Counted from the first letter of the stretch, positions 2,847 through 20,462 are shown. The stretch: DNA of 32,000 nucleotides from Erysipelotrichaceae bacterium (GCA_963676105.1 OY781039.1:660001-692000); one strand, 5' to 3'. Numbers and translations are program-made. Notes: generated by a model from the letters alone, not told the origin.

Positions 2847-3218
2847 ATGAAATTTAAAGTTCAATATTATATTAAAAGTAATGGTGAAATCCCTGTATCA
2901 GATTTTCTCGATAAACTTGACTCAAAAATGCGAGCAAAAATGATTCGAAATATTCAACTTCTTGAAGAAAATGGAAATTATCTTTCTATGCCTTATAGCG
3001 AAGCTTTAAGCAAAGGATTATTCCAGTTAAGAGCTCAATCCGCCGGAAACATTACTAGAATTATTTATTTTTTCTACCATGATAATACAATTATTTTAAC
3101 TAATGGCTTTATTAAAAAAACTAACAAAACACCTATTAAATATTTACTAATCGCACAAAAATACAAAGATGAATATATAAAATACATGAGGCACAAGCAT
3201 GAAAACAATGAACTTTGA
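2847..3218 (+). CDS. higB: Type II toxin, RelE/HigB superfamily (phage Gp49-like)
   Basis: The 123-aa product starts at ATG 2847. The TTG start at 2787 in the ORF track lies inside the promoter and is rejected. The pattern MKFKVQYYIKSNGEIPVSDFLDKL...LFQLRAQSAGNITRIIYFFYHDNTIILTNGFIKKTNKTP is typical of Gp49/HigB toxins. The toxin-first order and 20-nt overlap with the antitoxin fit this call. Confidence 0.85.
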   Translation: MKFKVQYYIKSNGEIPVSDFLDKLDSKMRAKMIRNIQLLEENGNYLSMPYSEALSKGLFQLRAQSAGNITRIIYFFYHDNTIILTNGFIKKTNKTPIKYLLIAQKYKDEYIKYMRHKHENNEL

Positions 3219-3492
3219 AGATGATTTAAAACGAAGATTAAAAGATCCTGAATTCAAAAAAGAATATGATGACTTAGAGCAAGAATACACTATTATCCAA
3301 GCCATCATTGATGCACGTGCTTCTAGAAACTTAACGCAAAAACAATTAGCAAAGTTAACTGGTATAAATCAAGCAGATATTAGTAAACTTGAAAGAGGTA
3401 TGACAAATCCTTCAATAAAACTATTGAAGAAATTTGCTGATGGTTTAGATATGGATTTACATATCAGTTTTACACCAAAAATCCACCAATAA
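3199..3492 (+). CDS. higA: XRE-family HTH antitoxin (HigA-like)
   Basis: 97 aa. The HTH is NLTQKQLAKLTGINQADISKLERGMTNPSIKLLKKFADGL. It overlaps the toxin gene. Confidence 0.85.
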   Translation: MKTMNFEDDLKRRLKDPEFKKEYDDLEQEYTIIQAIIDARASRNLTQKQLAKLTGINQADISKLERGMTNPSIKLLKKFADGLDMDLHISFTPKIHQ

Positions 3493-6400
3493 TTATTTGA
3501 TTTCAATAAATTGTTTTAATCTTAAACTGTAGAGGTAACCCTCTACTTTTTTATGTGGGTATTGAATTCGCAGTACTTCCATATAGTTTTCTATCTGTTC
3601 ATGGTAAAGCTCAATAAAAGTTTGTGGATCATCTAGTCCATCGGTTTTATAGTCAATGCAGTAAACTGTTGAATCCGTTATCGCAATACAGTCCATATAA
3701 CCATGTAAAACGTAATTATTTATCAAGGCATGGAAAGCATATTCATGTTTAATATCACCTTTTAACATTGACTGATAGATATCAGACTTATAGTAAGTCA
3801 TAAAAGCCTCTTGATCAGATTCGCTTAAATCAGGCTTATACTCTAAAAGTACATCTATTGTCCAATCTCTTAATGGTAAATCTTCAAAGAGTTTATGGAT
3901 TTCAGTTCCATGAACGGTTCCTTTATTTTGATTGAAATTTAAATGAACTTCAGTGAGTTTTGGATGGGTAGAACTTGGCGTTTTAAATTCTAGTGAATTG
4001 ATTGGTTTAGCAGTATATTTAAACTCTTTCTTTTCTTTTATTTTCTTTTCATTAAAAGAATAAGTTTGATCAATAATTTCTAGAATATGTTCAACCTTAA
4101 CTTTGCCTAATGATGCATTAATAGCGGCTTCAATTAAATAGGTACTTCCCCAACCATCTAACATGACACTATCAACTAAAGGAATATTAAATTTAGGTGT
4201 TTGATCAATAATGATTAGTTTGTCGACTGCACGCGTTAAAGCGACATAGATTAAACGAACCTGCTCTAAGATATCTTCCACCCTTGTTTTCATTTCAATC
4301 GCAATTCTTAATGGATTTTTACGTGTTCCTAAGTTTGGAAATTGAATCGTCTTCAACATAAAGCCAAGTTCACTATCCGCAATTAAAGCTGCATCATTAT
4401 CTTTTACACTTGCCCTTAAACGTGACCAATATAAAACCACTGGAAATTCTAAACCCTTAGATTGATGAATGGTCATAACTCGTACGACATCATCTTCTTG
4501 AGTAAACGGTATCGCTTCTGTACTTTCAGTATCACTAACTGATGTTATTTGAGAAACAAACTCTGATAATGACATCGCTTGATCTCGATAGATTACAGTT
4601 TTTTCAAAGAGTAGATCTAAGTTAGCACGTGCTTGTTTATCACAGAAATCATCATAATAGTTGTTGTATCTGAAAATAGCTTTGATAATGGATAATAAAT
4701 CTGTTGATTTAACAGAATAAATAAAGTCCATCAGTTCTTGGTGTTTTTCAGGAAAGTCTTCTTTAAAGACTTGTACGAAGAAGCGATTATGTCGATGTAA
4801 TGCCATATTGGCCAAGTCTGTATCACTTAAACCAATAAACTTGGATAAACACAAGCCGACAAAGTTTAGATCATCATAAGGGTTTAAAATCGCTTTGATC
4901 ATCAGTAATACATCTTGTACAGCTGGCGCATTAAAGAAACCCGTTTTTGCGCTGATATGATGCGGGATATTTGCTTTTTCAAATAAGTCTTGTAGATATT
5001 CTTTTTCAGCATTCGATCTGACTAAGACAACATAATCACTATATTTCTTAAACTCAGTTTCAGCTCTCATCTTTTCAATGGTGTTAACCATATGAATGAC
5101 ATGTAACTTCGCATTTGGATCCACTTGGGTATCTGTATTTGTTGTTTCATCAGAATCATCAGAATCATTCGATGACGCTTCACTCTCTTCTTGTTTATTT
5201 AAGAAGTGTACTTCAATCGCTTCACCACCACTTTGTTTCTCTGTTCCAATTTTAACCGTATCAGAAGCATGAAAATATGAACCTAGATTTTCAAAGTCCA
5301 TGAGTTGTTTAAAGATATGATTATTAAACTCAACAATCGATTCTTTAGAACGATAGTTTTCATCTAAGAATAATACTTTATTGTTTTCATCGTTAATTCT
5401 CATAAGTCCTTGCATGAGTTGTGGTTGAGCATTTCTAAAACGATAAATACTTTGTTTAACATCCCCTACTCTAAAGACATTAGACCCACAACTAATGAGT
5501 TGAACAATTTGATTTTGAACTTCATTGGTATCTTGGAATTCATCAACCATGATTTCTTTGATTTTATCTTTGAAAACTTGATCAATTCTAAATTTCTCAT
5601 TCTTTAAGATATCAATCGCTAAATGTTCCATATCATCAAAATCAATGGCTAAAGCTTTTGCCTTGAGTTCTTTATAGAGTTCCATGCTAAGTTGTGTTAA
5701 ATCGATCAAAGTCTGTTGACGACTCTTTAACAAGCTCATATCACTAAACCAATCACTCTCTTCAAAATTCATATGAAGCATACGTTCATAGGCTTTTTTA
5801 TATGTATCCCATTGATGTTTAAGAATCTCTTTCCCTCGTTGAGGTGGACCATCAAACTCAAATGAAGAAGACATTTCAAGTAAAACATTATGATATTTAG
5901 CATAGTCAAAATTAACACTCAATTGTTTAAGTTGATTGTAATAAACTGATTTTCTTAATTCAGTGTCGATAAAGATGTCTCGTTTTTCTAAATCTTTTTT
6001 ATAAGATCTTCCTGCTTCTAAAAAAGCGACGTACTCTGCCCCTTCTACCACTTTCATAAGGGCACTATGGCGATATAAAAAGTGTTCAATATACCACTTA
6101 TATTGCATATCAAAATAGCGTTTATGGCTATCTTTTAAATCAGCATAAGTTTGTATATCACCTAAAGCTAAACTCATTTCAATCCATGCATCTTGATCTT
6201 CGATGGTATTAAGTTTGTTTTTAAGTTTATCTACGGCTTCTTTTAGATTAAAAGAAGAACTTAAACCTAAATCAAAATGCCAAGCGAGTTCACTCATAGC
6301 TTTTTCATCTTTTAAAATCATGGTTTTATAAGCCTGTGTAAAAGCTTCATCCCATAATCTTTTCTTTGATGGTTCATCTAAGACATTACGTACCTGATTA

Positions 6401-6768
6401 GGATCAATACCACTGACATAAGAATAGTTTTCAATAATCTTTAAACAGAAGGCATGAATGGTGGTGATATAAGCTGAAGGTAAGAGAGATAATTGTTGAG
6501 TTAAATGTGCTTTTATTTCAGGATCATCAACTTTTTTAATACGTTTATTCAAGTTTTCAGCTAAACGCTTACGCATTTCACTAGCCGCAAGCTCAGTAAA
6601 AGTAATCGCCACTACTTCATCAAGTGATATACGATCTGTTTCTAGGCGTTTCATTAATCGACCAATTAATACTGCTGTTTTACCAGCACCAGCTGATGCA
6701 CTAACAAGTACATTCGTATTTAAGGCATCAATCGCTGCTTGTTGTTTAGGACTCCAAGTAAAACTCAT
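3493..6768 (-). CDS. addA: ATP-dependent helicase/nuclease subunit A (AddA/RexA; UvrD-type SF1 helicase plus C-terminal RecB nuclease)
   Basis: 1091 aa. Walker A is ASAGAGKT, motif II is MVDEFQDTN, and VGDVKQSIYRFR and TIHQSKGLEFPVV are present. The C-terminal PD-(D/E)xK motif is GYMDCIAITDSTVYCIDYKTD. It overlaps addB by 4 nt. Confidence 0.9.
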   Translation of the reverse strand: MSFTWSPKQQAAIDALNTNVLVSASAGAGKTAVLIGRLMKRLETDRISLDEVVAITFTELAASEMRKRLAENLNKRIKKVDDPEIKAHLTQQLSLLPSAYITTIHAFCLKIIENYSYVSGIDPNQVRNVLDEPSKKRLWDEAFTQAYKTMILKDEKAMSELAWHFDLGLSSSFNLKEAVDKLKNKLNTIEDQDAWIEMSLALGDIQTYADLKDSHKRYFDMQYKWYIEHFLYRHSALMKVVEGAEYVAFLEAGRSYKKDLEKRDIFIDTELRKSVYYNQLKQLSVNFDYAKYHNVLLEMSSSFEFDGPPQRGKEILKHQWDTYKKAYERMLHMNFEESDWFSDMSLLKSRQQTLIDLTQLSMELYKELKAKALAIDFDDMEHLAIDILKNEKFRIDQVFKDKIKEIMVDEFQDTNEVQNQIVQLISCGSNVFRVGDVKQSIYRFRNAQPQLMQGLMRINDENNKVLFLDENYRSKESIVEFNNHIFKQLMDFENLGSYFHASDTVKIGTEKQSGGEAIEVHFLNKQEESEASSNDSDDSDETTNTDTQVDPNAKLHVIHMVNTIEKMRAETEFKKYSDYVVLVRSNAEKEYLQDLFEKANIPHHISAKTGFFNAPAVQDVLLMIKAILNPYDDLNFVGLCLSKFIGLSDTDLANMALHRHNRFFVQVFKEDFPEKHQELMDFIYSVKSTDLLSIIKAIFRYNNYYDDFCDKQARANLDLLFEKTVIYRDQAMSLSEFVSQITSVSDTESTEAIPFTQEDDVVRVMTIHQSKGLEFPVVLYWSRLRASVKDNDAALIADSELGFMLKTIQFPNLGTRKNPLRIAIEMKTRVEDILEQVRLIYVALTRAVDKLIIIDQTPKFNIPLVDSVMLDGWGSTYLIEAAINASLGKVKVEHILEIIDQTYSFNEKKIKEKKEFKYTAKPINSLEFKTPSSTHPKLTEVHLNFNQNKGTVHGTEIHKLFEDLPLRDWTIDVLLEYKPDLSESDQEAFMTYYKSDIYQSMLKGDIKHEYAFHALINNYVLHGYMDCIAITDSTVYCIDYKTDGLDDPQTFIELYHEQIENYMEVLRIQYPHKKVEGYLYSLRLKQFIEIK
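3500..3554 (+). repeat. Direct repeat copy 2: the functional addA 3' end containing the higBA terminator hairpin
   Basis: Partner of 2677-2731. It lies wholly inside the last ~20 codons of addA. Confidence 0.8.
3529..3552 (+). terminator. Rho-independent terminator for higBA, embedded in the addA coding sequence
   Basis: GTAGAGG-taac-CCTCTAC (3529-3546) followed by T6 (3547-3552), 37 nt after the higA stop. On the minus strand the run precedes the stem, so it acts only on the plus strand. Confidence 0.65.
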
Positions 6769-9359
6769 GATTGTGACTTCCTTAACTTAGAATTCTTCGT
6801 TGTGATATTTTTTAATTTAACTTCATCACCTCTATATTGACAGAAATGAAGATATGGACAATACTCACATGAATGATCAATGTTTTGTTTATGAATATCA
6901 CCAGAACTCATATCTTCATAGATTTGAGTATAAATTTCTTTTAGTCTTTCTAAAACTAAAACTTCATCATAGGCATTCGTTGTATAGAGTCCTTTAGCTT
7001 CTGTATTTTTCCATTGATTGATGTGTGAAGCATTATCAAAGTCCACATCAATATCAAATGTTATACCTTTAAGCTGTCGTTTCTTTTGTTTTTCATCTTC
7101 AAAATTGAAACCTGCTTTTGTGGTCAAATCCACACGTTCTGGTTTTTGAGAAAAATAGCCTGCAAAGATAACTTTTTTATCAATCTTAGAATAAGCCCAT
7201 AAATAAGTCGCAAGTTGTAGTGATAAACCTGCTTCAAAAAGTTTTTCACTAAAGTTCTTTACACTAGATTTATAATCAATCACGCTAAAGGCTGTAGAAG
7301 ATTCATCTATTCGATCGATTTTACCTTTTAACTGAAGTGATTGATCATTATTTAAAATCATCTCATCATTAAATTCATATTCTTGTTTGTCAGGATTAAA
7401 GCTCTTTACATTTTCCCAATCCAAAAGGAATTCTAAGGACAGTTTTAAGGTTTCTATTAACTTATATTCAATAAGCTTTAATTCTTCCTTAAAGTTTGGA
7501 TATAAGCCCTCTACAGCTTCGATATAAGGTTTTATACGCTCTTTAATTTCTGCTTCAAACATTGAAGCATAATCTTTACCTTTATCTTTAATTGCCATCT
7601 CTAAAAAGGAATGAACAATATTCCCTAATAAGGCAGAATCTAATTCATAAGATGGTTTTTCATACAAAGATAAGCCTCTTTGTAGAAAATACTTATATGG
7701 ACAATGCGTATAGGTTTCAAAAGAAGTGATACTTCCTTTTAATCCATTTCTCATAAATAATGATTGACTTAATTCAGAAGAGAGTTGATGCTCACCTTCT
7801 ACAAAGTCATTTTCATTCTCTATTAAATCCCAAGCGGCTTTATCCGCATCCTTTAAAATACTCTCTAATTCAAATGGCATCTTTTGTGCTTTACCATCAT
7901 AAGAGCCAATCGAATAGGAATAGATAATCTCATCACTAATCTTTTGAGTATGGATTAATCGTTCCATATGATAGTTATAACGTTTACTAATATCATAGCC
8001 TTTGATTTTCTTTAAATAATCCAAATCAAATAAACCACTAACATTTTCAATTTGTGGATAGTTCTTTTGAGTACAAGCTAACCAAATTTGACGTTTAAGA
8101 CCTGGAATTAAAGCATGTTTTAAATCAGTCAGGATTAAACCTGTCTTTGATTTGGATTTCAAAGTTAATTTATCTAACGCATATAAAAGAACATCAAGTT
8201 TTCTTTCACTTTGATCAATGTTTTGTAAATTAGATGATTCTAAGAACTCTTTTATGACATACATGGATGAAACTTGTTCATCATTCTCAGAATCTATACA
8301 CTTTGTATAGACTTCAAAACACTGTGATACAAATTCAATAATTCCACTACTCTCATTAGATAAATCAGTAATAATCCATCTTAGTTCACTCAAAGCTTCT
8401 TCAGCATGAGCTTCTAAGATTTCAAAGTCAGCTTGTCGTACTAAACCTTTTAAAACATCATTATTAAAAGCTGTAGGCATGTGTTGTAGTTCATTCACTA
8501 AGTCATCAACACTTGGTTTAAAGACTTCACAGTATTTGATGAGTTCTAACTTATATTTGGATTGGATCACATTGTTGTGTAGGATTTGAATAAAGTTATC
8601 TAAACTTGGTTCAGCTTTAAACATCACTAATCGTTCAAACAAACGTAGCGCTGGATGTTTTAAGCTTCCACCTACTTTTTGATAAGGTACTCCATATTGA
8701 TTTAAAAAGACTTCAACTTGATCCATCATTGATGAATCTAAACAAACAATCGATTGATCTTCATAAGCTAAATCATCATTCACAACAAATTGAACAGCTG
8801 CTTGTATTTCACTACGAGGATTTGAAGCATATCTCAATTTTCTTTTAACATCTTTTTCTTTAATTAATATTTGTTTAACACTACAATTATCTAATCGTGT
8901 TTGAATCGGATAATCATAGAAATGTTCTAATATAGAAAGTTTGCTTAAATCAGATTTTTCAAATTCAATCCATTGTCTAAATAGAGCTTTATAGATTGGC
9001 AATACAGTATCAATAACTAAAAATAAATCCTTCTCTTTATCAGTTTCAGTAGGTAAATCCCCTTGATTCCAGCCTTCATTTGCCATTAAAGATATAAATG
9101 ATGTGACTTGATCAACAGTAATTGGAAACTTTAGTACATCATTTAATACACTAACTCTTTTATCATGACTCAATACTTCTAATGCAGAAGCACATTTAAA
9201 CCAATTCTCTTCACGATGATTTTCACTTAGTGTATTTAGATACACTGAAAGTGATACAAATTCTGTATCACCTATAATGGATTGTTTCTTGAGTAAATCA
9301 AGAACATATTTTTGTTTAGATTGTGTTGGTAGTATGGTTTTCATATGTAAAATTTTCAT
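6765..9359 (-). CDS. addB: Helicase-nuclease subunit B (AddB/RexB-type; inactivated helicase scaffold plus Fe-S nuclease domain)
   Basis: 864 aa, immediately upstream of addA. The RecB-type nuclease motif is GKIDRIDESSTAFSVIDYKSS. Four Cys are arranged as in the AddB iron-staple (THCPYKYF ... CEYCPYLHFC). No N-terminal Walker A is seen. An alternative start lies at 9344, and no SD precedes either start. Confidence 0.85.
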   Translation of the reverse strand: MKILHMKTILPTQSKQKYVLDLLKKQSIIGDTEFVSLSVYLNTLSENHREENWFKCASALEVLSHDKRVSVLNDVLKFPITVDQVTSFISLMANEGWNQGDLPTETDKEKDLFLVIDTVLPIYKALFRQWIEFEKSDLSKLSILEHFYDYPIQTRLDNCSVKQILIKEKDVKRKLRYASNPRSEIQAAVQFVVNDDLAYEDQSIVCLDSSMMDQVEVFLNQYGVPYQKVGGSLKHPALRLFERLVMFKAEPSLDNFIQILHNNVIQSKYKLELIKYCEVFKPSVDDLVNELQHMPTAFNNDVLKGLVRQADFEILEAHAEEALSELRWIITDLSNESSGIIEFVSQCFEVYTKCIDSENDEQVSSMYVIKEFLESSNLQNIDQSERKLDVLLYALDKLTLKSKSKTGLILTDLKHALIPGLKRQIWLACTQKNYPQIENVSGLFDLDYLKKIKGYDISKRYNYHMERLIHTQKISDEIIYSYSIGSYDGKAQKMPFELESILKDADKAAWDLIENENDFVEGEHQLSSELSQSLFMRNGLKGSITSFETYTHCPYKYFLQRGLSLYEKPSYELDSALLGNIVHSFLEMAIKDKGKDYASMFEAEIKERIKPYIEAVEGLYPNFKEELKLIEYKLIETLKLSLEFLLDWENVKSFNPDKQEYEFNDEMILNNDQSLQLKGKIDRIDESSTAFSVIDYKSSVKNFSEKLFEAGLSLQLATYLWAYSKIDKKVIFAGYFSQKPERVDLTTKAGFNFEDEKQKKRQLKGITFDIDVDFDNASHINQWKNTEAKGLYTTNAYDEVLVLERLKEIYTQIYEDMSSGDIHKQNIDHSCEYCPYLHFCQYRGDEVKLKNITTKNSKLRKSQS

Positions 9360-10404
9360 ATAATGCTGAATACATTAATATTAATTTATCTGAATTTGTT
9401 AAATCATCATGTAACTCAAAAAATTTAAATAAAAAATCTTCATAAAACAACTTAAAAGATTTACTCCCTATTTCTAAATTGTTACTTATATTTTTTAAAT
9501 ATAATATACTTTTTTCTACATAATAGTTATATATTGGTTTGTCTGTTGGTATATGTATATCAAACAATTTTAAAAATTTATGTTCATAAATTTTTTCATC
9601 TAAAGAATTTGTTGAATCAACAAATTCTTTAAAATGTTTTATTAAATCTTTTTTAAATAACATTACTAATTCTTTATTTTTTTCAATTAAATCTTCAAAG
9701 TTATAAATATCTTTAAATAGTTCAAGTATTATCACTATACTATTTTCATATCTCCTTTTATATTCAATAATTAAATTATCAATCGTTTCATTAATGTTAA
9801 TGTGATTGTAATTAATGATTTTTTGTCCTGATGATAAGTATTCAATTTCAAGCTTTTTTAAATTTTCTGCAATAATTTCTATTACATTATATTTATTTGT
9901 TACATATTCAAAAAAATCTTTTTTTAGCAATTTAATTCTGACATCTTCACTTTTTCGAATATTCGAATATACTTCAATATGTATCATATGAGGATCAAAA
10001 TTATCATCAACAAATGGTGTATATAATAATTCACCTTTCTTTTGCCATTTACTTTTAAATTTTGAATTTAAACTATGAGCATATACAAGTTTTCTTAGAT
10101 GTTGAAAATATCCATCAAACTCATCATGATCAATCTCTAAATTTAATGAATCATTTAGTTCAGATATTCCTACACGCAATATATCGACATATACAAATAA
10201 AATTATGATATTTCCCATCCCTGATTTGGTTGATTCTGAAAATTCTAATTCATTTATATGACTAACTGAATCTTCAATTCTATCCATGAAAGCACAAATT
10301 AAATTCCATTTGTTTGAATTTTTCATACTCTCATAATAATAATTTGAAGAATTTATTAAATCTCTTAATGCTATTATTAATTTTGGATCTAAATATAATT
10401 TCAT
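9316..10404 (-). CDS. Hypothetical 362-aa helical protein; possible N-terminal HEPN-like domain (Rx5H: LRKLVYAHS)
   Basis: Long uninterrupted ORF in a very AT-rich segment (12 G+C in nt 9361-9420). Its ATG at 10404 lies 1 nt after the upstream gene's stop (TAAaATG). Its 3' end overlaps the addB start by 44 nt. R104-x5-H110 (nt 10095-10075) sits about 105 aa into a helical N-terminal region. No other motif is recognised. Confidence 0.6.
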   Translation of the reverse strand: MKLYLDPKLIIALRDLINSSNYYYESMKNSNKWNLICAFMDRIEDSVSHINELEFSESTKSGMGNIIILFVYVDILRVGISELNDSLNLEIDHDEFDGYFQHLRKLVYAHSLNSKFKSKWQKKGELLYTPFVDDNFDPHMIHIEVYSNIRKSEDVRIKLLKKDFFEYVTNKYNVIEIIAENLKKLEIEYLSSGQKIINYNHININETIDNLIIEYKRRYENSIVIILELFKDIYNFEDLIEKNKELVMLFKKDLIKHFKEFVDSTNSLDEKIYEHKFLKLFDIHIPTDKPIYNYYVEKSILYLKNISNNLEIGSKSFKLFYEDFLFKFFELHDDLTNSDKLILMYSALYENFTYENHTTNTI

Positions 10405-10405
10405 T

Positions 10406-10996
10406 TTATTTAATTCTGCCTTTAATAAAATTAGCTATCTCAATATTCACTTCATTAACTGCATCTACTTCATAATTTATAAATGAAGTTCCAATATTTA
10501 CTGATTGTCGTTTTGAGTCTATTTCACCATTTTTATTTAGATAGTCCCATTGAAGATTATAAAATTCTTGTGATGATATATTTGAACTGAACAAATACTC
10601 TTCCATTTTTACTAACAAATCTGTATATTTCCCAATAGCAGATCTAACCTTACCATCTTCTTCAAAAACTAGACTTTGACTTTGTATTTGAGAAACTGTT
10701 GATGTAAATTTCATCCGATATTCAGTTTTATGATTAATTTTACTTCTAAAAAGTTTTTTTTCATTAAAATAATCTTCAATTATTTTTATCAATAGCATAT
10801 GGTTTTCAATTAAAATTTTCCTTGTATCATTTAACATATGATATCTTTCTATTTTCTTTTCTAGTGAATACGAATATCGAAATGCTATAATAGCCCCTAA
10901 AAATAACAAAAAAATAGATATGAAAAAATCAACAAAATTAATTTTCATAAATAGATTTTCGAAAATATTTGAAATAAATTCACTAGTACCCGACAT
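10406..10996 (-). CDS. Hypothetical membrane-anchored protein (single N-terminal TM helix)
   Basis: ATG at 10996 is preceded by GGGAGGTG (11005-11012, minus strand). The ORF-track TTG at 11014 would start inside that SD. A hydrophobic helix, FVDFFISIFLLFLGAIIAF, is followed by ~155 hydrophilic residues with no recognisable motif. Hand count of 12 G+C in nt 10801-10860. Confidence 0.6.
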   Translation of the reverse strand: MSGTSEFISNIFENLFMKINFVDFFISIFLLFLGAIIAFRYSYSLEKKIERYHMLNDTRKILIENHMLLIKIIEDYFNEKKLFRSKINHKTEYRMKFTSTVSQIQSQSLVFEEDGKVRSAIGKYTDLLVKMEEYLFSSNISSQEFYNLQWDYLNKNGEIDSKRQSVNIGTSFINYEVDAVNEVNIEIANFIKGRIK

Positions 10997-11066
10997 ATTA
11001 CATACACCTCCCAATAAAATAAAAACTTTTAAATAATAATTCCCTGTTTAATATTAAATAATATCT

Positions 11067-14000
11067 TCAAACCCCACTATACTTCTCAAAATACTCATAC
11101 ATTAAACTGATAATTCTATTCTTAATTTCATCTCTATTCCCTCTAAATCGTGGAATAGCTGGTAACACTTGATCTATATCAGTTCCAGATGTTTTCATTG
11201 AACCATCTGTCAATGATCTACTCATAAACCATAATGTTTTCTCTTCATTTAAGTTCTCAGAAATTATTAGATTACTTAAGTCTTTTTCTTTTTGCTCTTC
11301 AATGTATTGAGTCCAATCAGATTTTTCCTCTAATTGTAGATTTACTCTTTCTAAGAAACCTTCAATGAGTTCTTTTTTACTTCTTAGTTCTAAACTTGAA
11401 CCAATAGCTTTTTGAATACTTACTAATATTTCTTTATCTTTGCAATTTGAATTAACATATTGTTCAATGAGTTTAAGAATATAATCAATATTTACTTCTA
11501 TTTGTTTTATAAGCTCAATTTCAAAGACTAGATCATCATTGATATTTTCTTTTTCAGGTCCTGGTCTTCTTTGCCTATATAAATCAATGTACATACTTTG
11601 ATAATCTTGGAAATCTCTTTCAGATAAGATTTGATTCCCTTCAAATTCATCAAAGGATACTAAGATATTTTTTATTTTAAGGATAGCTCCAAAAAGTTTT
11701 ATAAATGCTTTCTGATCATCTTCACTTAAGATAAGTTCTCCTAATTTAAAGTCTCTTTGTAATCTTTCAATAAAATCAACATAACCTTCTTTATGTACAT
11801 CTTGATCATCATATCCATAATAATAATCATTATAGGTTCTAAGTAATATAAGTCCTTTTGCTTCTCTATTACCAAATAAAGCTAATGCTTCATCAGTTGC
11901 TTTAGAAAGATTTCTAAAACAAACAATATTACCATAGGTCTTAACTGAGTTTAATATTCGATTAGTTCTTGAATAGGCTTGAACTAACCCATGATATTTA
12001 AGATTTTTGTCTACCCATAAAGTATTAAGTGTTGTCGCATCAAAACCTGTTAAAAACATATTAACTACAATTAAAATATCAATTTCTCTTTGTTTAACAC
12101 GTAAGGATAAATCTTTATAGTAGTTTTGAAACTTATCACTTGTATCAAAATTAGTTTTAAAGTAATCGTTATAATCATGTATTGCTTTATCTAAGAATTC
12201 TCTTTGACTGGTATTTAATTGACTTGTATCTAAATCTTCATCAGGTAAGAAATCTTCTGGTTCATCTTCATTGATGGAAAAGCTAAAGATTGTCGCTATT
12301 TTATAATCTAGATTCTTTTCAGTTATCTGTTTCTTTAATTCATTGTAGTATCTCATTGCATTCGCAATAGATGACACAGCAAAGATTGAATTAAAACCTT
12401 TTTGATAAGTATTGTGAGCACTGTATACTTTGTTTCTTCGTGTCTTTTGATCAAAGTGTTCTAGGATATATGCACTCACTTCACTAATTCTTCTAGGATC
12501 TGATAAAGCTTCTTCTTTATCAATCGCTGATATCTTTTCATCATCGATATCTTTAGATGTTTTTATAGTATTGATAAAATCAACTCTAAACTTTAATACA
12601 TTCCCATCATTAATCGCATCAATAATGGTATATGTATGTAACTTATCACCAAAAGCTTGTTCAGTGGTTTGTAAATTTGGGTTAGTCCCAGAATTCGCAT
12701 TTACCGCAAATATAGGCGTACCTGTAAAACCAAAAATATGATATTTTTTAAAAATTCTAGTAATATCTTGGTGCATTTGTCCAAATTGAGAACGATGACA
12801 CTCATCAAACACTAAAACCACATGTTTACTATAGATTTCATGTGTTTTATTTTGACTGATAAAATTATGGAGTTTTTGAATCGTTGTTATAATTATTTTT
12901 GCATTATTATCACTTAGTTGTTTAGTCAAAATCTTAGTTGATTTATTACTATTAGCAGCGCCTTTTTCAAATCGATCATATTCTTTCATCGTTTGATAAT
13001 CTAAGTCTTTACGATCAACCACAAAGAGTACTTTTTCAATTGAATTATTTAAAGTAATTAGTTGTGCTGTTTTAAAACTCGTTAATGTTTTACCAGAACC
13101 TGTTGTATGCCATATATAACCACCAGCTTGTACTTTGCCCCACGTTTTATAATTGGATGAAATCTCGATTCGATTTAAGATTCTCTCAGTAGCGGCAATT
13201 TGATAAGGCCGCATAACTAATAATAAATCTTCACTAGTAAAGACACAGTATTTGGTAATGATATTTAATAACGTATGTTTAACAAAGAATGTTTTAGTGA
13301 AATCTTCTAAATCTAAGATTTGCTTATTATTTGCATCAGCCCAATAAGAAGTAAACTCATAACTATGACTTGTTTTATTCTCAGTTCCTTTATTCCCTTT
13401 AGTTGATTCTTCAATACGTTTAAAACGTGTTGTATTGGAATAATACTTAGTATGAGTACCATTACTGATCACAAAAATTTGGATAAACTCAAATAAACCA
13501 GAATCAGCCCAAAAGCTTTCTCTTTGATAACGATTAATTTGATTAAAGGCTTCTTTTAATTCAATACCACGTCTTTTAAGCTCTATATGAATGATTGGTA
13601 AGCCATTAATTAAAACAGTAACATCATAACGATTCTTATGAGTACCACCTTCTGTTTCATATTGGTTTATAACTTGTAGAGTATTATTATGAATATTCTT
13701 TTTGTCTATTAAAGTTATATTCTTAGTTAACCCATCATCTTTAACTAAGTTTTTAACATAATCAGTTTGTATAGTTTTAGTTTTCTCAACAATACCTTCA
13801 TTCTTATTAGCTAAATAGTTTTTAACAAATTGATCCCATTCAGTATCAGAAAATTGATAATTATTCAATTTCTCTAACTGAACTTTAAGATTACTAAAAA
13901 GATCTTGTTCAGATTTGATTTCTAAGTAGGTATATCCTTGTCCTACTAGTTGTTGAATAAATTTATTTTCAAGTTGAGCTTCACTTTGATATTCAGTTGT

Positions 14001-14075
14001 TCGTTTTTTATCACTTGTGTATTCAGCAACAACTGTAGCCTCATTTGAAGCCATTACAATATTAAACTGTGTCAT
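11067..14075 (-). CDS. hsdR: Type I restriction enzyme, R subunit (HsdR)
   Basis: 1002 aa. The N-terminal PD-(D/E)xK motif is YDVTVLINGLPIIHIELKR. SF2 motifs are HTTGSGKT (I) and VFDECHRS (II), with FGFTGTP and VNMFLTGFD also present. It overlaps hsdS by 4 nt (ATGA). Confidence 0.95.
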   Translation of the reverse strand: MTQFNIVMASNEATVVAEYTSDKKRTTEYQSEAQLENKFIQQLVGQGYTYLEIKSEQDLFSNLKVQLEKLNNYQFSDTEWDQFVKNYLANKNEGIVEKTKTIQTDYVKNLVKDDGLTKNITLIDKKNIHNNTLQVINQYETEGGTHKNRYDVTVLINGLPIIHIELKRRGIELKEAFNQINRYQRESFWADSGLFEFIQIFVISNGTHTKYYSNTTRFKRIEESTKGNKGTENKTSHSYEFTSYWADANNKQILDLEDFTKTFFVKHTLLNIITKYCVFTSEDLLLVMRPYQIAATERILNRIEISSNYKTWGKVQAGGYIWHTTGSGKTLTSFKTAQLITLNNSIEKVLFVVDRKDLDYQTMKEYDRFEKGAANSNKSTKILTKQLSDNNAKIIITTIQKLHNFISQNKTHEIYSKHVVLVFDECHRSQFGQMHQDITRIFKKYHIFGFTGTPIFAVNANSGTNPNLQTTEQAFGDKLHTYTIIDAINDGNVLKFRVDFINTIKTSKDIDDEKISAIDKEEALSDPRRISEVSAYILEHFDQKTRRNKVYSAHNTYQKGFNSIFAVSSIANAMRYYNELKKQITEKNLDYKIATIFSFSINEDEPEDFLPDEDLDTSQLNTSQREFLDKAIHDYNDYFKTNFDTSDKFQNYYKDLSLRVKQREIDILIVVNMFLTGFDATTLNTLWVDKNLKYHGLVQAYSRTNRILNSVKTYGNIVCFRNLSKATDEALALFGNREAKGLILLRTYNDYYYGYDDQDVHKEGYVDFIERLQRDFKLGELILSEDDQKAFIKLFGAILKIKNILVSFDEFEGNQILSERDFQDYQSMYIDLYRQRRPGPEKENINDDLVFEIELIKQIEVNIDYILKLIEQYVNSNCKDKEILVSIQKAIGSSLELRSKKELIEGFLERVNLQLEEKSDWTQYIEEQKEKDLSNLIISENLNEEKTLWFMSRSLTDGSMKTSGTDIDQVLPAIPRFRGNRDEIKNRIISLMYEYFEKYSGV

Positions 14076-15316
14076 GATTCTAACTCCTTAAAAGTAAGAA
14101 GTTTATCCCTATAGTACTCATATTGTTTTTGTCTTGCTTCGATTTCAGCTGGTAAACCAATTTTGATATCATTCACTAATGAATCATATTGATCTAGAAT
14201 TCTTACAATCTCTTCTTGAACTTCTAGAGAAGGAAATGGAATGGTAAAGTTTCTGATAGATTCAATTGTTAAACTTGCTTGTCCAGTTCCTTTTATATTA
14301 TTTCTTATTTGGTTTTGTCCTCTTGCGGAATTCAAATAATGATAAATATAATCAATATTTATATTTTTATTAATTTTCAAAACACCAATTGCGCCACCTA
14401 AGAATGCTTTATTTTTATTAGGGAACAATCCAATATTTCCAATACTAGCACCAACAATTGATAATAATATACATCTATTATCAAGCACAATTTTAGGAAA
14501 TTTTTCTGCAACTTTAATTGGTATGTAGTAATCAGTATTAAAATTAAATTGTTTGCCAGAAAAAAACTTGGTTTGAATATAAGGTAATGAGTCACGTGAT
14601 TTTTTTAATGTTAATGATTTTTTTATATGATTAGAATAATCAAAACCAGTTTGTTTAGTAATAATGTCACACAAGCCTTCTAGTCTAATATTTTCTATTT
14701 TTGTATTATCAAAAAACTGATTAAGATAATACTCGTATTGTTTTTTTCTTGCTAAAAGTTCAGAATCAAGAACATCATTTAATTCAGTGAATTGATCTAA
14801 AATCCTAACAATTTCATTTTGAATTTCAATTGGTGGTAGTGGAATACTAAAATTTCTTAAACTCTTCATATCGACTGAACTAAAATTCCCTTGCACAAGA
14901 TTATTCTTGCACCATTCACTTACTAGTTGAAAAGCAAATAAAACAAATTCAATATTTAATACATTTTTGTATTTCGCTTTAAGAGAAAATATTGTGAATC
15001 TTTGATTCGCGACAAAGTTTGTTTTTATTAAAGCAAATTCACCAATTGTTGCAGAAGTACTTATAATAATTGAATCCTTTTTAAATGGATTGTTTTTAGC
15101 ACCTTTTAGTGTAATATGTTGTTCAGAATCATACAAAATTCTACCTTTTAATCTAATATCTTCAATCCGGTACCAAGGAACATTTCCATCATTCCAAAAT
15201 TCTTCATTTTTCTTTGAAGGAGTGTATCCACCTTTAATGTCAAATAATTCCATTAAAGATTTAAACTCAACACCATCAGGACAATATTGTTGAATAAGCT
15301 CATCTAATTTACTCAT
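14072..15316 (-). CDS. hsdS: Type I R-M specificity subunit (HsdS) with two dissimilar target-recognition domains
   Basis: 414 aa. Two variable halves are separated by the conserved repeats EIQNEIVRILDQFTEL...ARKKQYEYY (central) and EVQEEIVRILDQYDSL...ARQKQYEYY (C-terminal). It overlaps hsdM by 8 nt. Confidence 0.9.
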   Translation of the reverse strand: MSKLDELIQQYCPDGVEFKSLMELFDIKGGYTPSKKNEEFWNDGNVPWYRIEDIRLKGRILYDSEQHITLKGAKNNPFKKDSIIISTSATIGEFALIKTNFVANQRFTIFSLKAKYKNVLNIEFVLFAFQLVSEWCKNNLVQGNFSSVDMKSLRNFSIPLPPIEIQNEIVRILDQFTELNDVLDSELLARKKQYEYYLNQFFDNTKIENIRLEGLCDIITKQTGFDYSNHIKKSLTLKKSRDSLPYIQTKFFSGKQFNFNTDYYIPIKVAEKFPKIVLDNRCILLSIVGASIGNIGLFPNKNKAFLGGAIGVLKINKNINIDYIYHYLNSARGQNQIRNNIKGTGQASLTIESIRNFTIPFPSLEVQEEIVRILDQYDSLVNDIKIGLPAEIEARQKQYEYYRDKLLTFKELES

Positions 15317-16880
15317 TAGAATAGCCTTCTAATTCTTCAATAATTGAATCAATTGAGGATCTCAATTCATTAGATTTTAGTACAATTTCTTTAATTTCTT
15401 CATTTAGTACTTCGATATTAATAATTTCTCTTGTGTCTTCTTTTTCAACATAAGATGAAACAGATAAATTAAAATCATTTTCCTGAATATCTTTTAATGA
15501 GACTAATTTTGTTTTGTATTGAGCTTCTTCTCTATTTGAAAATAACTCAATAATTTTATCTTGATTATCTTGTTTGAGCTTATTATCTTTACCCTCTTTA
15601 ATGAATTCTTGAGATGCATCTATGAATAAAATATTGTTATCAGTTTTTGATTTCTTTAAAACTAGAATATCAGTCGTTATGCCTGTGCCATAAAATAGAT
15701 TTGAAGGTAGTTCAATAACCGCATCCACATAATTATTCTCAACTAAATACTTGCGGATTTGTTGTTCAGCTCCACCTCTATATAGAATGCCCGGAAATAC
15801 TACAATAGCTGCTACACCATTTGGAGCAAGCCAATGTAAACTATGCATTATAAAAGAGAAATCAGCTTTACTTTTAGGCGCAAGTGTTCCAGCCGGTGCA
15901 AATCGTGGATCATTTATAAGTAATGGATTATTGTCACCTTCCCATTTAATGGAATATGGAGGATTAGATACAATTGCTTCAAATGGTTCATCATCCCAAT
16001 GTAAAGGATTAATTAAAGTATCGCCTAAACCAATATCGAATTTATCGTAATCAATGTCATGTAAAAACATATTGATACGACATAAGTTGAAAGTTGTAGG
16101 ATTAATTTCTTGTCCATAAAATCCTTGTCTTACATTATCTTTCCCTAATATCTTTGCGAATTTTAAAAGCATTGATCCTGAACCACATGCTGGATCATAT
16201 ACTTTATTAATTGATGTTTTACCAACTAATGTAATACGTGTTACAACTTCTGATACTTCTTGTGGTGTAAAGAATTCACCACCACTCTTCCCAGCACCTG
16301 AAGCATACATACTCATTAAGAATTCATATGCATCTCCAAAGGCATCTATTGAATTATCTTGGAAATTACCTAAGTTCATGGACGCTACTCCATTCATTAG
16401 TTTAACTAATCGTTTATTTCGATCAGTTACAGTTCCACCTAATTTGTTACTGTTAACATCTATATCATCAAATAAACCCTTAAAATCTTTTTCACTTGGT
16501 GATCCTTGAGCGGATGCCTCAATATTATTAAAAACTCTTTCTAGAGTTTCATTAAGATTACTATCATTGTCAGCATTTTTATAAACATTTGAAAATAACT
16601 CACTTGGTAAAATAAAGAAACCTTTTGTAAGAATTAAATCTTGTCTTGCCTCTTCTGCTAATTTATCTTCTAGTAAACGATAATCAAAATCTTTAACTCC
16701 AGCTTTTATTTCACCAATATTTATATAATTAACTATGTTCTCTGATATATAACGATAAAACAACATACCTAGAACATATTGTTTAAAATCCCAGCCATCT
16801 ACACTACCTCTAAGGTCATTGGCTATTCCCCATATTGTCTTATGTAATTCAGCTCTTTGATTATCTCTATTCAGTGTCAT
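15309..16880 (-). CDS. hsdM: Type I R-M N6-adenine DNA methyltransferase subunit (HsdM)
   Basis: 523 aa. It has an HsdM_N-like N-terminus (LHKTIWGIANDLRG), AdoMet motif I VYDPACGSGSML and catalytic motif IV IVSNPPYS. The SD-like GGGTGGA lies upstream. Confidence 0.95.
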   Translation of the reverse strand: MTLNRDNQRAELHKTIWGIANDLRGSVDGWDFKQYVLGMLFYRYISENIVNYINIGEIKAGVKDFDYRLLEDKLAEEARQDLILTKGFFILPSELFSNVYKNADNDSNLNETLERVFNNIEASAQGSPSEKDFKGLFDDIDVNSNKLGGTVTDRNKRLVKLMNGVASMNLGNFQDNSIDAFGDAYEFLMSMYASGAGKSGGEFFTPQEVSEVVTRITLVGKTSINKVYDPACGSGSMLLKFAKILGKDNVRQGFYGQEINPTTFNLCRINMFLHDIDYDKFDIGLGDTLINPLHWDDEPFEAIVSNPPYSIKWEGDNNPLLINDPRFAPAGTLAPKSKADFSFIMHSLHWLAPNGVAAIVVFPGILYRGGAEQQIRKYLVENNYVDAVIELPSNLFYGTGITTDILVLKKSKTDNNILFIDASQEFIKEGKDNKLKQDNQDKIIELFSNREEAQYKTKLVSLKDIQENDFNLSVSSYVEKEDTREIINIEVLNEEIKEIVLKSNELRSSIDSIIEELEGYSNE

Positions 16881-17006
16881 ATTATATCCACCCTTTATTT
16901 CAACAATTCTATTTTACACTAAAAGTTGTTAATACCTTTTTAACTATCCAATATTTTGTACATAAATACTTCTTATAATTCATTCGTTTGTGATAACATT
17001 TTATTA

Positions 17007-20000
17007 ATGAACAATAATATCCCATTGCATAACGATATCTTTAATGCAATTCAGAATAATCAGTTGGTTCTTTTTTTAGGCGCAGGAGTTTCAAAATCTT
17101 TGGGACTTCCTGATTGGAAAGAGTTAACATCTAAATTACTTCAATCCTCTATTGATGATGAAGTAAGTACTTTTCTTGAAAATGAATTAATTCAGTCTTA
17201 CTTACAAAATGACTATAAAAAAATTATTTCAGTTATATTTGAGAAATATAAATTAATGAACAAAATAGATTTTTTTAATTTAAATCTTAGTCGATATTTA
17301 ACAATAACAGAATTTGATAAAACAAACCCAATATATAAATTTATAGAACTTACAAATCCGTTAGTTTTGACTACCAATATTGATAATGTATTTGATAAAC
17401 AATTCATGAAAGATAATATTTTCTATAAAGACAATTATATGGAATGGCCTAGAAGAGGCCCTTCTATAGTTCACATTCATGGAAAAATCAGTGAACCTGA
17501 TACAATTGTATTTACTGCAAGCCAATATGTTGAGAAATATTTCGATTTAGATTTTAAATATTACCTAGAAAGTATATTTACATCTGAAAAAACTATTTTA
17601 TTCTTGGGTTATAGTTTTAGTGAATTTGAATTATTAGAAAAAATATTGAGAACAATTGATAAAAAAGCAACATCTAAGATTTTCACTTTAAATGCATATT
17701 ATTCATTTCAACAAACATTAAAAGATAATATGTCAAACTATTATAAATCATTAAGAATCGAACAACTTGATTATTGTCTTGATAATTTTGGTTATAAAAA
17801 TTTTAACAACCAAATAGCAGATTGGGTACAATATTTAAAAAATCATTCTATTGATTTAACAAATCAAAAAAAAATCAGAGAGTATTTGAAAGATTACAAT
17901 AAAGAAAATTTGCATTTATTAAAACAAATAATAAAAGATAATGAAGAATACAAATTTTATGCTTTTAAGAAAATTGAACAACTTGTTAATCCAACTAAAT
18001 GGTTATTGGAATTTTCAAATAATTATTGGACTCCAATTTCTCGTGCGATTGGTTTAGATCAAAGTAAAACAAATGCAACTTGGTTTTATATTTTAACTCT
18101 ACATAGAGTTTATTTAACTACCAAAAATAAGGAAATTAAAAAATCTTTAATAAATAAAATCTTATCGCTTTCAAATAACAAAAAAATATATAAAACAAGA
18201 ATAAATTCTAATTTCATTGTGAATATTGTTTTAATCGTTATGTCATTCAAAGAATTAGTGAGCAATGAAGTAGTTAATAAGTTAATAATTTATTTTATTG
18301 ATACTCAACAAGTAGAAGATGAATTTATTATTTACCACCTAAATTCAAAAGATTATGTTAAAAGAACAACAAAAGAGCTTTATCCATTTGAATTAAAAAT
18401 TATCAAAAACTCAATTGTTTCAAATTTAGATAGTTCTATTAATAATTCTAATATCGAATTAATTACATATATAAAGAAAAATGATATTACTACATTATCC
18501 GGTTTCGAAATATGCAAATTATGCATAAACAAAATTAATGAATCAAATGATAATATTTTCTATAAATTCAACGAATTTGGAAGTATTAACAGAGTATTAA
18601 AAAACAACTATTCTTTAGATGGGCTTTATTTATTACATATTTTCTTTTATTTTTATGAAAATTTACTTACGAAAGACAAGAAAATTCTTTTAGAAATAAT
18701 TATAAAATCAAGAAAAAAAATATCTAAAAACATTTTGTTATATCTAATTTTAATAGATTACAATGAAAACAAAAAACTATTATTAACTAAAAATTTTAAC
18801 CCTTTTTATAATAGAAGTTACTTTAGTGAATTATATATATTATTAAAAGAAAAGCTTAATGATTTAGAACCAACTTTCATTGAATCATTAAAGTTCCAAA
18901 TAGATTATTATTTCAAAACCGAAAAAAATTATGATGCACATCTTTTATATATGATTGATTCAGTTAGCAAATTACTAGGATTAAAGAGCAATGATCATTT
19001 TATTGATAAAAAATATTTTAATCAATTTGAAAATTATGATAAACCTGAGGAATTTTCAGTAACAATTAAATCTTACTCTTATAGTTCAAACGATCTTGTT
19101 AGTTTTTATCACAGTAATTTCAGTAATATATATGATTTAAAAACTTTAAATAATAATTTATATAAAATAGAAATTATCTTTCCATTTACTTTGGAAGATC
19201 ATAAGCATGCTTTTGAATTGTATTTAAACAAACGAATTCACGAATTCAAAATAGATTTTTCTGAATATGAAAATTTCAATGTAGACTTTAAAGAAAATTT
19301 ATTTTGGTGTATTGCAAATAATTTAGAGAGAATTGAAAAATCGCCAGTCAAAATTATATTAAATTACTTCTTAACAAACATTGAAATATTTAATATTAAA
19401 AACCTAACAAGATTAATAAATGTATTAAGTGAGAAAGAAATTGACTTCTACTTTAATAAAGAATTCATTGATATTAAACAAAAATTAATCACTTTAATTG
19501 ATAAAGATAATTTAAAAGTTGAATTTTCTAATATTGATACTTATATTCAGAAAATAGAAAATAATTTTACATATTCTCTTTTTAGTCTTATTTTGAAGAA
19601 AGAAAAAGATATTAGCATACTAGAGAAATGTTTTAAGATTAATGATTTTTATTTTTCTTTTTTGTTAATAAATAATTATATTTTGTATGAATTAAATCCT
19701 GGTTGGTTTATTAAAATGTTTGAATCATTTATAAAAAATGCTTCAACAAAAGAAAAAAATAAATTGGTTTCACTTCTTTTTCTAAAGAGATGCACAGACA
19801 AAATATATGAATTAATAATATCAGAAAAATTTTTTATAGATTTTGTAAATTCTAACATCGATAAAGAAACATTTTATCTTTCACATTTAAAAAGAATATC
19901 TATACAATATATTTTACATAATCTTATTTTGAAAAATTATAAATCTGACTCGGTACTGTTATTAATTCTCAATAGAAATAACACTGTGAATATCGTGGAT

Positions 20001-20462
20001 GCTTTTGATGTTTTAAGATATTTACAAGAACTATATTCAAATAATAAAAACTATTTAAAAATTACAAATAATATTATCAATTTCTATTTATGTGAGTTAG
20101 AGACAGTTGAAATCTCGAAATCTAACGCAAATCATGTTTATATTTACTTTATTGATGTAATAAACAAATTAAATGTAATAAATATTAATACATTGAATTC
20201 CTTAGAAAATTTGATAAGATTTTATTCAGGTAGTTATACAAATGAATTTTACAAATTACTACTAAGAGTTGTAAAAAAATATCCGGAAAAAGTAATTAAT
20301 ATTATGAAAATTACAGCAAATAATACAGAGTCTTACAAACATGATGAAAATAATATTGTTAAAATATTAAAAATTTTAATTAAAATGAAAATTGAAAATG
20401 CTCATCAATTAATCTCAGAGTATCAAGCCATTGGTTTTGACTTGGAAGACATAAATTTCTAA
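17007..20462 (+). CDS. Large SIR2-domain protein (N-terminal SIR2_2-type NADase-like domain plus ~870-aa uncharacterised helical C-terminal region); DSR-like defence candidate
   Basis: The ORF track starts at TTG 16956. The first ATG is at 17007, just before the domain. SIR2 motifs are LVLFLGAGVS, LVLTTNIDNVFD, IVHIHGKISEPDTIVFTASQY and ILFLGYSFSEFE. The remainder has no recognisable motif. It is extremely AT-rich (10 G+C in nt 18661-18720). Confidence 0.85.
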   Translation: MNNNIPLHNDIFNAIQNNQLVLFLGAGVSKSLGLPDWKELTSKLLQSSIDDEVSTFLENELIQSYLQNDYKKIISVIFEKYKLMNKIDFFNLNLSRYLTITEFDKTNPIYKFIELTNPLVLTTNIDNVFDKQFMKDNIFYKDNYMEWPRRGPSIVHIHGKISEPDTIVFTASQYVEKYFDLDFKYYLESIFTSEKTILFLGYSFSEFELLEKILRTIDKKATSKIFTLNAYYSFQQTLKDNMSNYYKSLRIEQLDYCLDNFGYKNFNNQIADWVQYLKNHSIDLTNQKKIREYLKDYNKENLHLLKQIIKDNEEYKFYAFKKIEQLVNPTKWLLEFSNNYWTPISRAIGLDQSKTNATWFYILTLHRVYLTTKNKEIKKSLINKILSLSNNKKIYKTRINSNFIVNIVLIVMSFKELVSNEVVNKLIIYFIDTQQVEDEFIIYHLNSKDYVKRTTKELYPFELKIIKNSIVSNLDSSINNSNIELITYIKKNDITTLSGFEICKLCINKINESNDNIFYKFNEFGSINRVLKNNYSLDGLYLLHIFFYFYENLLTKDKKILLEIIIKSRKKISKNILLYLILIDYNENKKLLLTKNFNPFYNRSYFSELYILLKEKLNDLEPTFIESLKFQIDYYFKTEKNYDAHLLYMIDSVSKLLGLKSNDHFIDKKYFNQFENYDKPEEFSVTIKSYSYSSNDLVSFYHSNFSNIYDLKTLNNNLYKIEIIFPFTLEDHKHAFELYLNKRIHEFKIDFSEYENFNVDFKENLFWCIANNLERIEKSPVKIILNYFLTNIEIFNIKNLTRLINVLSEKEIDFYFNKEFIDIKQKLITLIDKDNLKVEFSNIDTYIQKIENNFTYSLFSLILKKEKDISILEKCFKINDFYFSFLLINNYILYELNPGWFIKMFESFIKNASTKEKNKLVSLLFLKRCTDKIYELIISEKFFIDFVNSNIDKETFYLSHLKRISIQYILHNLILKNYKSDSVLLLILNRNNTVNIVDAFDVLRYLQELYSNNKNYLKITNNIINFYLCELETVEISKSNANHVYIYFIDVINKLNVININTLNSLENLIRFYSGSYTNEFYKLLLRVVKKYPEKVINIMKITANNTESYKHDENNIVKILKILIKMKIENAHQLISEYQAIGFDLEDINF

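Follow-up and report, generated by a model that had tools for sequence, protein, structure and literature searches.

What separates a type I restriction-modification (R-M) operon from addB in the genome of an Erysipelotrichaceae bacterium, and what might it do there? The question arises in a stretch of 32,000 nucleotides (GCA_963676105.1 OY781039.1:660001-692000), hereafter the window, and concerns two tightly packed minus-strand open reading frames (ORFs), gene 1 (10406-10996) and gene 2 (9316-10404). An original prediction, made from the sequence alone, had placed two such ORFs between hsdR and addB, where we indeed found them, and had proposed an abortive-infection cassette in which a membrane protein accompanies a putative HEPN-type RNase. 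The two genes are not chance ORFs, because the longest stop-free run spans 372 codons, whereas in 500 shuffles of the region it averaged 67 and never exceeded 125. Weighing the evidence below, we lean slightly towards the view that gene 2 is a rare, unnamed and mobile single-gene defence effector of the abortive-infection type, with a proposed RNase mechanism built on residues R104 and H110.

The gene-2 family and its genomic settings

Gene 2 and its two conserved motifs are laid out as follows:

9316..10404, minus strand: gene 2, 362 aa, member of an unnamed family with no Pfam, PADLOC, NCBIfam or PHROG match
10075..10095, minus strand: Rx5H motif, codons R104 to H110 (RKLVYAH); family consensus FFxYxR[SA]LxFAHP
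10279..10296, minus strand: second conserved motif, codons C37 to R42 (CAFMDR), in the long helix 30-52

An exhaustive phmmer search of 1.84 billion proteins (E < 1e-3) recovered 87 representatives of the gene-2 family at 50% identity, most members being ~380-400 aa in length. A word-index search found a single homologue at 33% identity, and a profile search of the word-indexed database added only 7 more proteins. That gene 2 belongs to no recognised family held true in every library searched: at E ≤ 1 it returned only noise from Pfam, PADLOC, NCBIfam and PHROGs, with no hit at all from PADLOC itself. PADLOC likewise identified no family shared across the 57 members of our family alignment, yielding six stray single matches at E ≥ 0.001. 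None of the 5027 PADLOC v2 models (PADLOC-DB v2.0.0), which include 145 PDCs, the embedded candidates of bioRxiv 10.1101/2024.01.29.577857, matches the family, and it is therefore not among the catalogued defence candidates. Profile searches of the PDB with the full-length protein and with its N-terminal domain returned nothing relevant, the best matches being Ta0956 (E = 0.076) and designed Bcl binders.

The 57-sequence alignment, on which all conservation counts are based, shows that the Rx5H motif of the original prediction belongs to a real family, in which no other feature is as well conserved. The segment FQHLRKLVYAHSLN, which begins at gene-2 residue 100, fixes the positions of R104 and H110. 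R104 is invariant (57/57), and C37, D41 and H110 are each present in 56 of the 57 members, followed by R42 and A109 (54/57 each). A further set of positions (E125, P130, Y146, R218, N243, Y294 and K298) is conserved in ~90% or more of members each. The family consensus motifs read NLICAVMDR and TDDxFFEYxRSLxFAHP. A Kyte-Doolittle scan detected no transmembrane (TM)-like hydrophobic segment in gene 2. Within its coding region, at 9601-9631, is also a perfectly palindromic sequence with a stem of 14 bp (TAAAGAATTTGTTGAATCAACAAATTCTTTA), which was flagged as a terminator-like site on the plus strand. At one related locus (L009, 2305-3413) the family gene is divided into three ORFs of 91, 112 and 119 aa, reflecting either a pseudogene or an alternative genetic code of the host.

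To place the family in its genomic context, we gathered ~45 loci, in part with a search seeded by a 10-sequence subset of the alignment, ~30 of them non-redundant and most of them metagenomic. Linkage to defence genes here means recurrent co-location in these sampled loci and not a genome-wide enrichment value. The gene directly upstream of the family gene is hsdS in six lineages (L010/11/26, L014, L028, L029, L030 and L031), and in L027 a 94-aa ORF lies between the two. Directly downstream is hsdR in four (L010-type loci, L014, L027 and L029), with overlaps often of 1-20 nt. At least four lineages have the family gene between hsdS and hsdR; the window copy directly follows hsdR instead. Another locus (L041) has the order hsdM-hsdS-152aa-TIR-kinase-X, where X is the family gene. 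Among 146 neighbours, taken three genes either side at 29 non-redundant loci, Methylase_S was the commonest Pfam family with 7 hits, ahead of HNH with 6 and HsdR domains with 5. A PADLOC scan of the neighbours agreed, with type I R-M genes as the top neighbour family. Type I R-M is the commonest specific association of the gene-2 family. Defence cargo is known to insert in the gap between hsdS and hsdR (PMC12255303), and such "guilt by embedding" has been validated for finding defence genes (bioRxiv 10.1101/2024.01.29.577857).

Several of these R-M loci have peculiarities of their own. L010, L011, L014 and L026 are metagenome-assembled genomes (MAGs) of gut alphaproteobacteria. The R-M operon of L010 has RhuM between hsdM and hsdS, its hsdR is followed by a gene for a DUF5677 protein, and a HipA kinase is encoded nearby. 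Judged by ORF size, the gene order is the same in L011 and L026, and hsdS of L011 consists of two half-genes (222 + 208 aa). L014 shares with L010 only the extra ORF intervening between hsdM and hsdS, there without a Pfam match.

Defence genes of many other kinds also lie beside the family. McrBC with a PLD nuclease, and PDC-S15, occur beside family members, as do a SMEK-STAND NTPase and a Gabija-like OLD/UvrD pair. Fic, PLD-helicase and BREX-like genes are found near one member, toxSAS and NA-iREase2 near a member as well, and NACHT with HEPN-MNT beside the family gene on a Bacillus thuringiensis plasmid. The family gene is carried on plasmids and integrative elements in addition to prophages. 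In a rough neighbour-joining tree, R-M-linked members were spread over at least four clades, and the window protein grouped with members from an McrBC locus (L001) and an HNH locus (L006). Upstream of the former of these two closest relatives is a partial PADLOC PDC-S15 candidate (L001 3-287). In the latter, a 468-aa protein with a C-terminal HNH domain (L006 857-2263) starts 9 nt before the family gene.

Gene-2 relatives therefore do sit in defence contexts, which was the check that the original prediction had proposed for homologues. Because the family recurs in type I R-M operons, in defence islands and in the accessory slots of prophages, it is a good anti-phage candidate, and this genomic context makes a defence function for the family probable.

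A putative active site and the HEPN question

If gene 2 is a defence effector, its conserved residues should offer a clue as to how it acts. The AlphaFold2 model of gene 2, built with the family alignment, had a predicted local distance difference test score (pLDDT) of 90.3 and a predicted template modelling score (pTM) of 0.81. It comprises helices at residues 8-18, 30-52, 63-86 and 95-107, then a loop and three strands within 127-160, and an all-helical portion at 161-361. The conserved polar residues sit in the N-terminal helical domain of the model: helix 95-107 has R104 at its C-terminal end, the loop beyond it holds H110, and D41 is on helix 30-52. In HEPN proteins, the Rx4-6H motif spans the C-terminal end of helix-3 and the start of the following loop, a conserved acidic residue lies on helix-2, and inserts between helices 2 and 3 are frequent (PMC3710099). 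As modelled, the position of the gene-2 motif matches this geometry, and the predicted helix 63-86 could represent an insert of the HEPN type. At least 16 HEPN clades have been linked to R-M systems (PMC3710099). The active sites of HEPN RNases are composite and lie where two subunits of a dimer meet.

A number of observations weigh against this reading, some against the HEPN assignment and others against the effector role more broadly. The residue directly after the Arg in HEPN motifs is typically N, D or H, and the upstream acidic residue on helix-2 usually appears as Ex3[KR] (PMC3710099). In the gene-2 family, R104 is followed by S (31 members), A (19) or N (4), and in the window protein by K; the conserved acidic residue appears as D-R (D41, 56/57). 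The motif helix is short. The conserved D, R and H could be structural salt bridges rather than an active site. No Pfam family was common to the 57 members in an hmmscan at E ≤ 0.1, the HEPN_* families included, and every annotated homologue is a "hypothetical protein". Foldseek searches of PDB and BFVD gave nothing below E = 0.29, with no HEPN chain listed for either model. When the N-terminal profile was aligned by hhalign with an AbiU2-like neighbour (L003) and a DUF86 HEPN protein (L045), the probability was < 1%. The sample of genomic contexts is also small. Finally, the TDD motif, near-invariant in the family and located just before the FFxYxR helix, is missing from the window protein. 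This loss falls near nt 10075-10130 (residues ~92-110) and, according to how the sequences are aligned, is either a deletion of 6 residues or a change of D to F. The K following R104 in the window protein is unique among the 57 members, and all other conserved family residues are retained.

Taken together, the motif and its modelled position speak for the HEPN assignment of the original prediction, while Pfam, Foldseek and hhalign do not. The assignment is supported by motif and position in the model, and not by a profile or fold match, which leaves it plausible but unproven. We regard a true HEPN-type RNase as possible, if somewhat doubtful, and consider the narrower proposal that catalysis is centred on R104 and H110 to be evenly balanced. 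AbiU2 relatives sought for profile building were not found in viral contigs.

The foremost alternative is that gene 2 is a defence effector that is neither HEPN nor an RNase, having a new helical fold that acts by nucleotide or NAD hydrolysis, DNA cleavage or ligand binding. The confident gene-2 model matches no known fold, as would be expected under this explanation, and many polar residues beyond the Rx5H motif are conserved too (E125, Y146, S147, R218, N243, Y294 and K298). Those fold matches of the N-terminal domain that recurred, none of them significant, were all to all-alpha NTP pyrophosphatases of the MazG/dCTPase-like kind. However, these four Foldseek matches (2a3q, 7mu5, 2yfc and 2oie) had E = 3.5-9.3 and TM scores ≤ 0.36, which is at the level of noise, and we rejected a MazG/dCTPase-like N-terminal domain. 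Moreover, the best-conserved feature of the family is the Rx5H pair at its HEPN-typical position, and linkage to R-M is a hallmark of many HEPN clades. We therefore view a non-HEPN effector as unlikely, albeit deserving of attention.

Returning to gene 2 as an effector with an R104/H110 site, a mechanism can be proposed. The N-terminal helical domain would form a catalytic site from R104 and H110, aided by D41, R42 and C37 on the neighbouring long helix, and this site would cleave RNA without metal, as HEPN enzymes do. It would be held off by the all-helical C-terminal half until the arrival of a phage cue or the neutralisation of the adjacent restriction enzyme. Gene 2 would in this way provide a second line of defence, as PrrC does for EcoprrI. 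In the window, it would be co-transcribed and translationally coupled with gene 1.

PrrC is the most instructive comparison. It is embedded in the EcoprrI type I R-M operon, is Arg/His-dependent and has been proposed to serve as a fail-safe once restriction is neutralised (PMC3710099). The PrrC/RloC/APECO1_4465 group shares with the gene-2 family the occurrence as a single extra gene in the order hsdM-hsdS-X-hsdR, the occasional presence of RhuM, and relatives in prophages. In contrast, the C-terminal HEPN domain of PrrC is under the control of an ABC-type ATPase at the N terminus, whereas gene 2 has neither an ATPase nor any other Pfam domain, and its model is helical with a small sheet. The gene-2 motif is N-terminal, the candidate for regulation is the C-terminal helical domain, and the two proteins have no sequence similarity. 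The window copy also follows hsdR rather than lying between hsdS and hsdR. It is a tentative and rather doubtful extension of the mechanism that gene 2 founds an undescribed R-M-linked clade of HEPN-like (or new-fold) RNases, that is, a PrrC-style type I fail-safe that would lack an NTPase domain, carry a C-terminal helical sensor and work alone in prophages and other islands.

Other known systems resemble gene 2 in part. The R-M-linked stand-alone HEPN abortive-infection (Abi) clades (AbiU2, Abi2/AbiD/AbiF, ApeA and AbiJ) and HEC-08/DUF3644 are likewise single-gene systems with an Rx4-6H motif that occur in R-M operons and prophages. AbiU2 has the same Rx5H spacing with "AH" (RDKLVAH in L003), and an AbiU2-like gene lies directly upstream of the L003 family member. 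In HEC-08, mutating the motif His abolished defence, and the protein matched the PDB HEPN structure 5YEP (bioRxiv 10.1101/2024.01.29.577857), whereas gene 2 has no HEPN structure match in Foldseek. Gene 2 is also twice the size of the HEPN Abi proteins, with a beta-sheet and a 200-aa helical extension. DarTG2 in the RRDM island of enteropathogenic Escherichia coli (EPEC) uses the same hsdS/hsdR insertion site (PMC12255303), and the PADLOC "PDC" candidates follow the same embedding logic (bioRxiv 10.1101/2024.01.29.577857). Unlike such cargo, gene 2 is a single gene and not a toxin-antitoxin pair, nor is it a catalogued PDC. Single-gene Abi systems of the lactococcal type, which are AT-rich, orphan-like and often membrane-associated, bring to mind both genes of the window, which have 21-24% G+C, are poorly conserved and reside in acquired DNA by an R-M system. 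However, no PADLOC Abi model matches gene 1 or gene 2.

Gene 1, the upstream slot and the phage copies

The original prediction treated gene 1 and gene 2 as a unit. The features on which this rested, together with those that we could add, are:

10406..10996, minus strand: gene 1, 196 aa from ATG, one N-terminal TM helix and a soluble tail; orphan
11005..11012, minus strand: Shine-Dalgarno GGGAGGTG, 8 nt before the gene-1 ATG, read from the sequence
10402..10408, minus strand: TAAaATG stop/start junction of gene 1 and gene 2 (TAA 10408-10406, A 10405, ATG 10404-10402)

The local description was accurate. The Shine-Dalgarno of gene 1, its single TM helix and the TAAaATG junction were all borne out by sequence and hydropathy. 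The top 19-mer of the helix, FVDFFISIFLLFLGAIIAF, covers residues 21-39 (nt 10880-10936) with a mean Kyte-Doolittle hydropathy of 2.59. The gene-1 ORF stays open back to a TTG at 11014. Between the end of the hsdR stop codon (11067) and the gene-1 ATG (10996) is a gap of 70 nt, as had been predicted. This gap is free of a terminator hairpin, as a consensus scan of 9000-11400 located no terminator-like hairpin on the minus strand. Gene 2 has no good Shine-Dalgarno of its own, and the TAAaATG junction would imply local translational coupling of gene 1 with gene 2.

These features favour an obligate two-component abortive-infection system, in which gene 1 acts as a membrane anchor or sensor and gene 2 as the effector. 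The two genes are on the same strand with no terminator-like site between them, and both are extremely AT-rich. In a phage lineage (L005/L007), a TM protein of 244 aa with 2 TM helices lies directly upstream of the family gene. That protein is unrelated to gene 1 in sequence, and we rejected it as a diverged gene 1 for want of sequence support.

However, the pair was not found in other genomes. A word-index search of 5.8 billion protein clusters returned only gene 1 itself, and tblastn gave 0 matches in 72,556 plasmids and in 50,697 phage records. The family libraries (Pfam, NCBIfam and PHROGs, E ≤ 1) yielded only noise for gene 1, and PADLOC had no hit at that threshold. No gene-1 homologue was detected beside gene-2 relatives in the ~30 non-redundant loci, even with phmmer --max. 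The upstream neighbours of the relatives fall into 17 unrelated groups, and gene 1 is in none of them. In L003, L004, L005, L018 and L034, whose family proteins share at least 90% identity, the gene directly before the family gene differs: it encodes an AbiU2-like HEPN protein, a 200-aa HExxH protein, the 244-aa protein with 2 TM helices, or a protein of 226 or 122 aa, five genes that are unrelated to one another. In R-M loci the upstream gene is hsdS, and many family members stand alone.

The two-gene cassette is thus not conserved because gene 1 is an orphan that lies beside no gene-2 relative, and this part of the original prediction did not survive. What stays constant is the family gene, whereas the slot before it holds variable cargo, and gene 1 fits there. 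Gene 1 is probably a lineage-specific membrane protein and not an obligatory partner, in which case the TAAaATG coupling would be a local feature. An obligate two-component system is improbable on this evidence. The five loci just named are phage or prophage loci of Tenericutes/Bacillota MAGs, and the interval from HNH to terS in them is a hotspot of cargo exchange.

The phage copies also raise the question of whether gene 2 works for the host at all. In prophages, the family gene is directly upstream of terS in three lineages, following ParB-methylase, SAM synthetase and HNH genes. Another explanation is that gene 2 is an accessory or regulator of type I R-M (restriction control or alleviation) or a phage counter-defence or anti-restriction factor. 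Translational coupling between hsdS and hsdR in several loci is consistent with an accessory role. In phages, the gene shares a block with ParB-methylase and SAM synthetase, both of which aid the evasion of restriction, and this position next to an orphan methylase and SAM synthetase would suit a counter-defence gene as well as a defence effector. Yet family genes also lie beside McrBC, Gabija-like, STAND and NACHT genes where type I R-M is absent, and an anti-restriction gene is unlikely in a host R-M operon. In the Latilactobacillus prophage TMW 1.1381 P1, the copy is found between integrase and lysin genes, on the strand of repressor, sie and int, which places it in the lysogeny module. The conserved polar pattern is enzyme-like, unlike that of a DNA mimic or small regulator. 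An accessory or counter-defence role consequently seems quite improbable.

Least credible is a mobile-element passenger with a non-defence role, such as a late or packaging function of phages, that lies near defence genes through shared mobile DNA: despite its position by terS and its presence on plasmids and integrative elements, the hsdS-X-hsdR loci with overlapping codons have no phage genes, the family is absent from most phages (one match only among 50,697 records), and the Latilactobacillus copy lies apart from the late genes, on the strand of the lysogeny module.

The island in the window and its meaning

Gene 2 as a defence effector also agrees with the company that it keeps in the window, where the remaining features are:

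11067..16880, minus strand: type I R-M operon, directly upstream of gene 1 and gene 2 and on the same strand
15309-16880, minus strand: hsdM (PADLOC MTase_I, E = 1e-129)
14072-15316, minus strand: hsdS (PADLOC Specificity_I, E = 5e-102)
11067-14075, minus strand: hsdR (PADLOC REase_I, E = 0)
16956..20462, plus strand: DSR1-type SIR2 defence protein, 1168 aa (Pfam SIR2_2, 1.5e-17; PADLOC Dsr1, 3e-58, full length)
6765-9359, minus strand: addB (ORF listing)
3493-6768, minus strand: addA (ORF listing)
9316..9359, minus strand: 44 nt shared by the 3' end of gene 2 and the start of addB as annotated (ORF coordinates), at the right-hand edge of the low-G+C island

The ORF listing gives a minus-strand row of close-packed or overlapping genes in the order hsdM, hsdS, hsdR, gene 1, gene 2, addB and addA. 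The DSR1 gene is divergent from hsdM and lies at the far end of the low-G+C island. It is of an NAD-depleting defence type. According to PADLOC, the type I R-M system of the window is complete, and with DSR1 it substantiates the defence-island setting that had been predicted. G+C content is 20-30% across ~9316-20850, compared to 30-33% in addBA and 33-38% in the PTS/GH1 genes. The lowest values in the island are those of gene 2 (20.6%), DSR1 (21.1%) and gene 1 (23.9%). The G+C counts by which the original prediction had set both genes apart from their flanks were exact (12 in 9361-9420 and 12 in 10801-10860, against 18 in 9241-9300). The block at ~9316-20850 contains DSR1 and the type I R-M operon as well as gene 1 and gene 2, and has the appearance of a single acquired defence island. 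Its addB-proximal end is formed by the two genes, since the step in G+C falls at addB. No tRNA marking an integration site was found in the window.

Since gene 2 overlaps the start of addB, the island abuts addB without intergenic space. The overlap shrinks to 29 nt if addB begins at its second ATG (9344). This arrangement suggests that transcription may continue from gene 2 into addBA. At the other end of addA is a Gp49/HigB-like toxin gene (2787-3218, plus strand; Pfam Gp49, 3.6e-23), overlapped by a 97-aa ORF (3199-3492, plus strand) that has the sequence appearance of an XRE-type helix-turn-helix protein. The two ORFs are a putative HigBA-like toxin-antitoxin pair converging on the addA end.

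What the locus would mean for biology is not a conceptual surprise, as R-M-embedded HEPN-type effectors and "guilt by embedding" are both established, and there are hundreds of comparable candidates. The gene-2 family is new, although the kind of system to which it belongs is known, and it is a worthwhile experimental candidate. Defence cargo is exchanged at two places, the hsdS-hsdR gap of bacteria and, in phages, the slot just before the family gene, and both are worth mining for more candidates. If our reading of gene 2 is true, it would add a single-gene anti-phage family unrecognised by Pfam, NCBIfam, PADLOC v2 and PHROGs. It would also be another natural pairing of restriction with a back-up effector, in a compact protein without the ATPase regulator of PrrC, and would be easy to work with when asking how a fail-safe senses the defeat of restriction.

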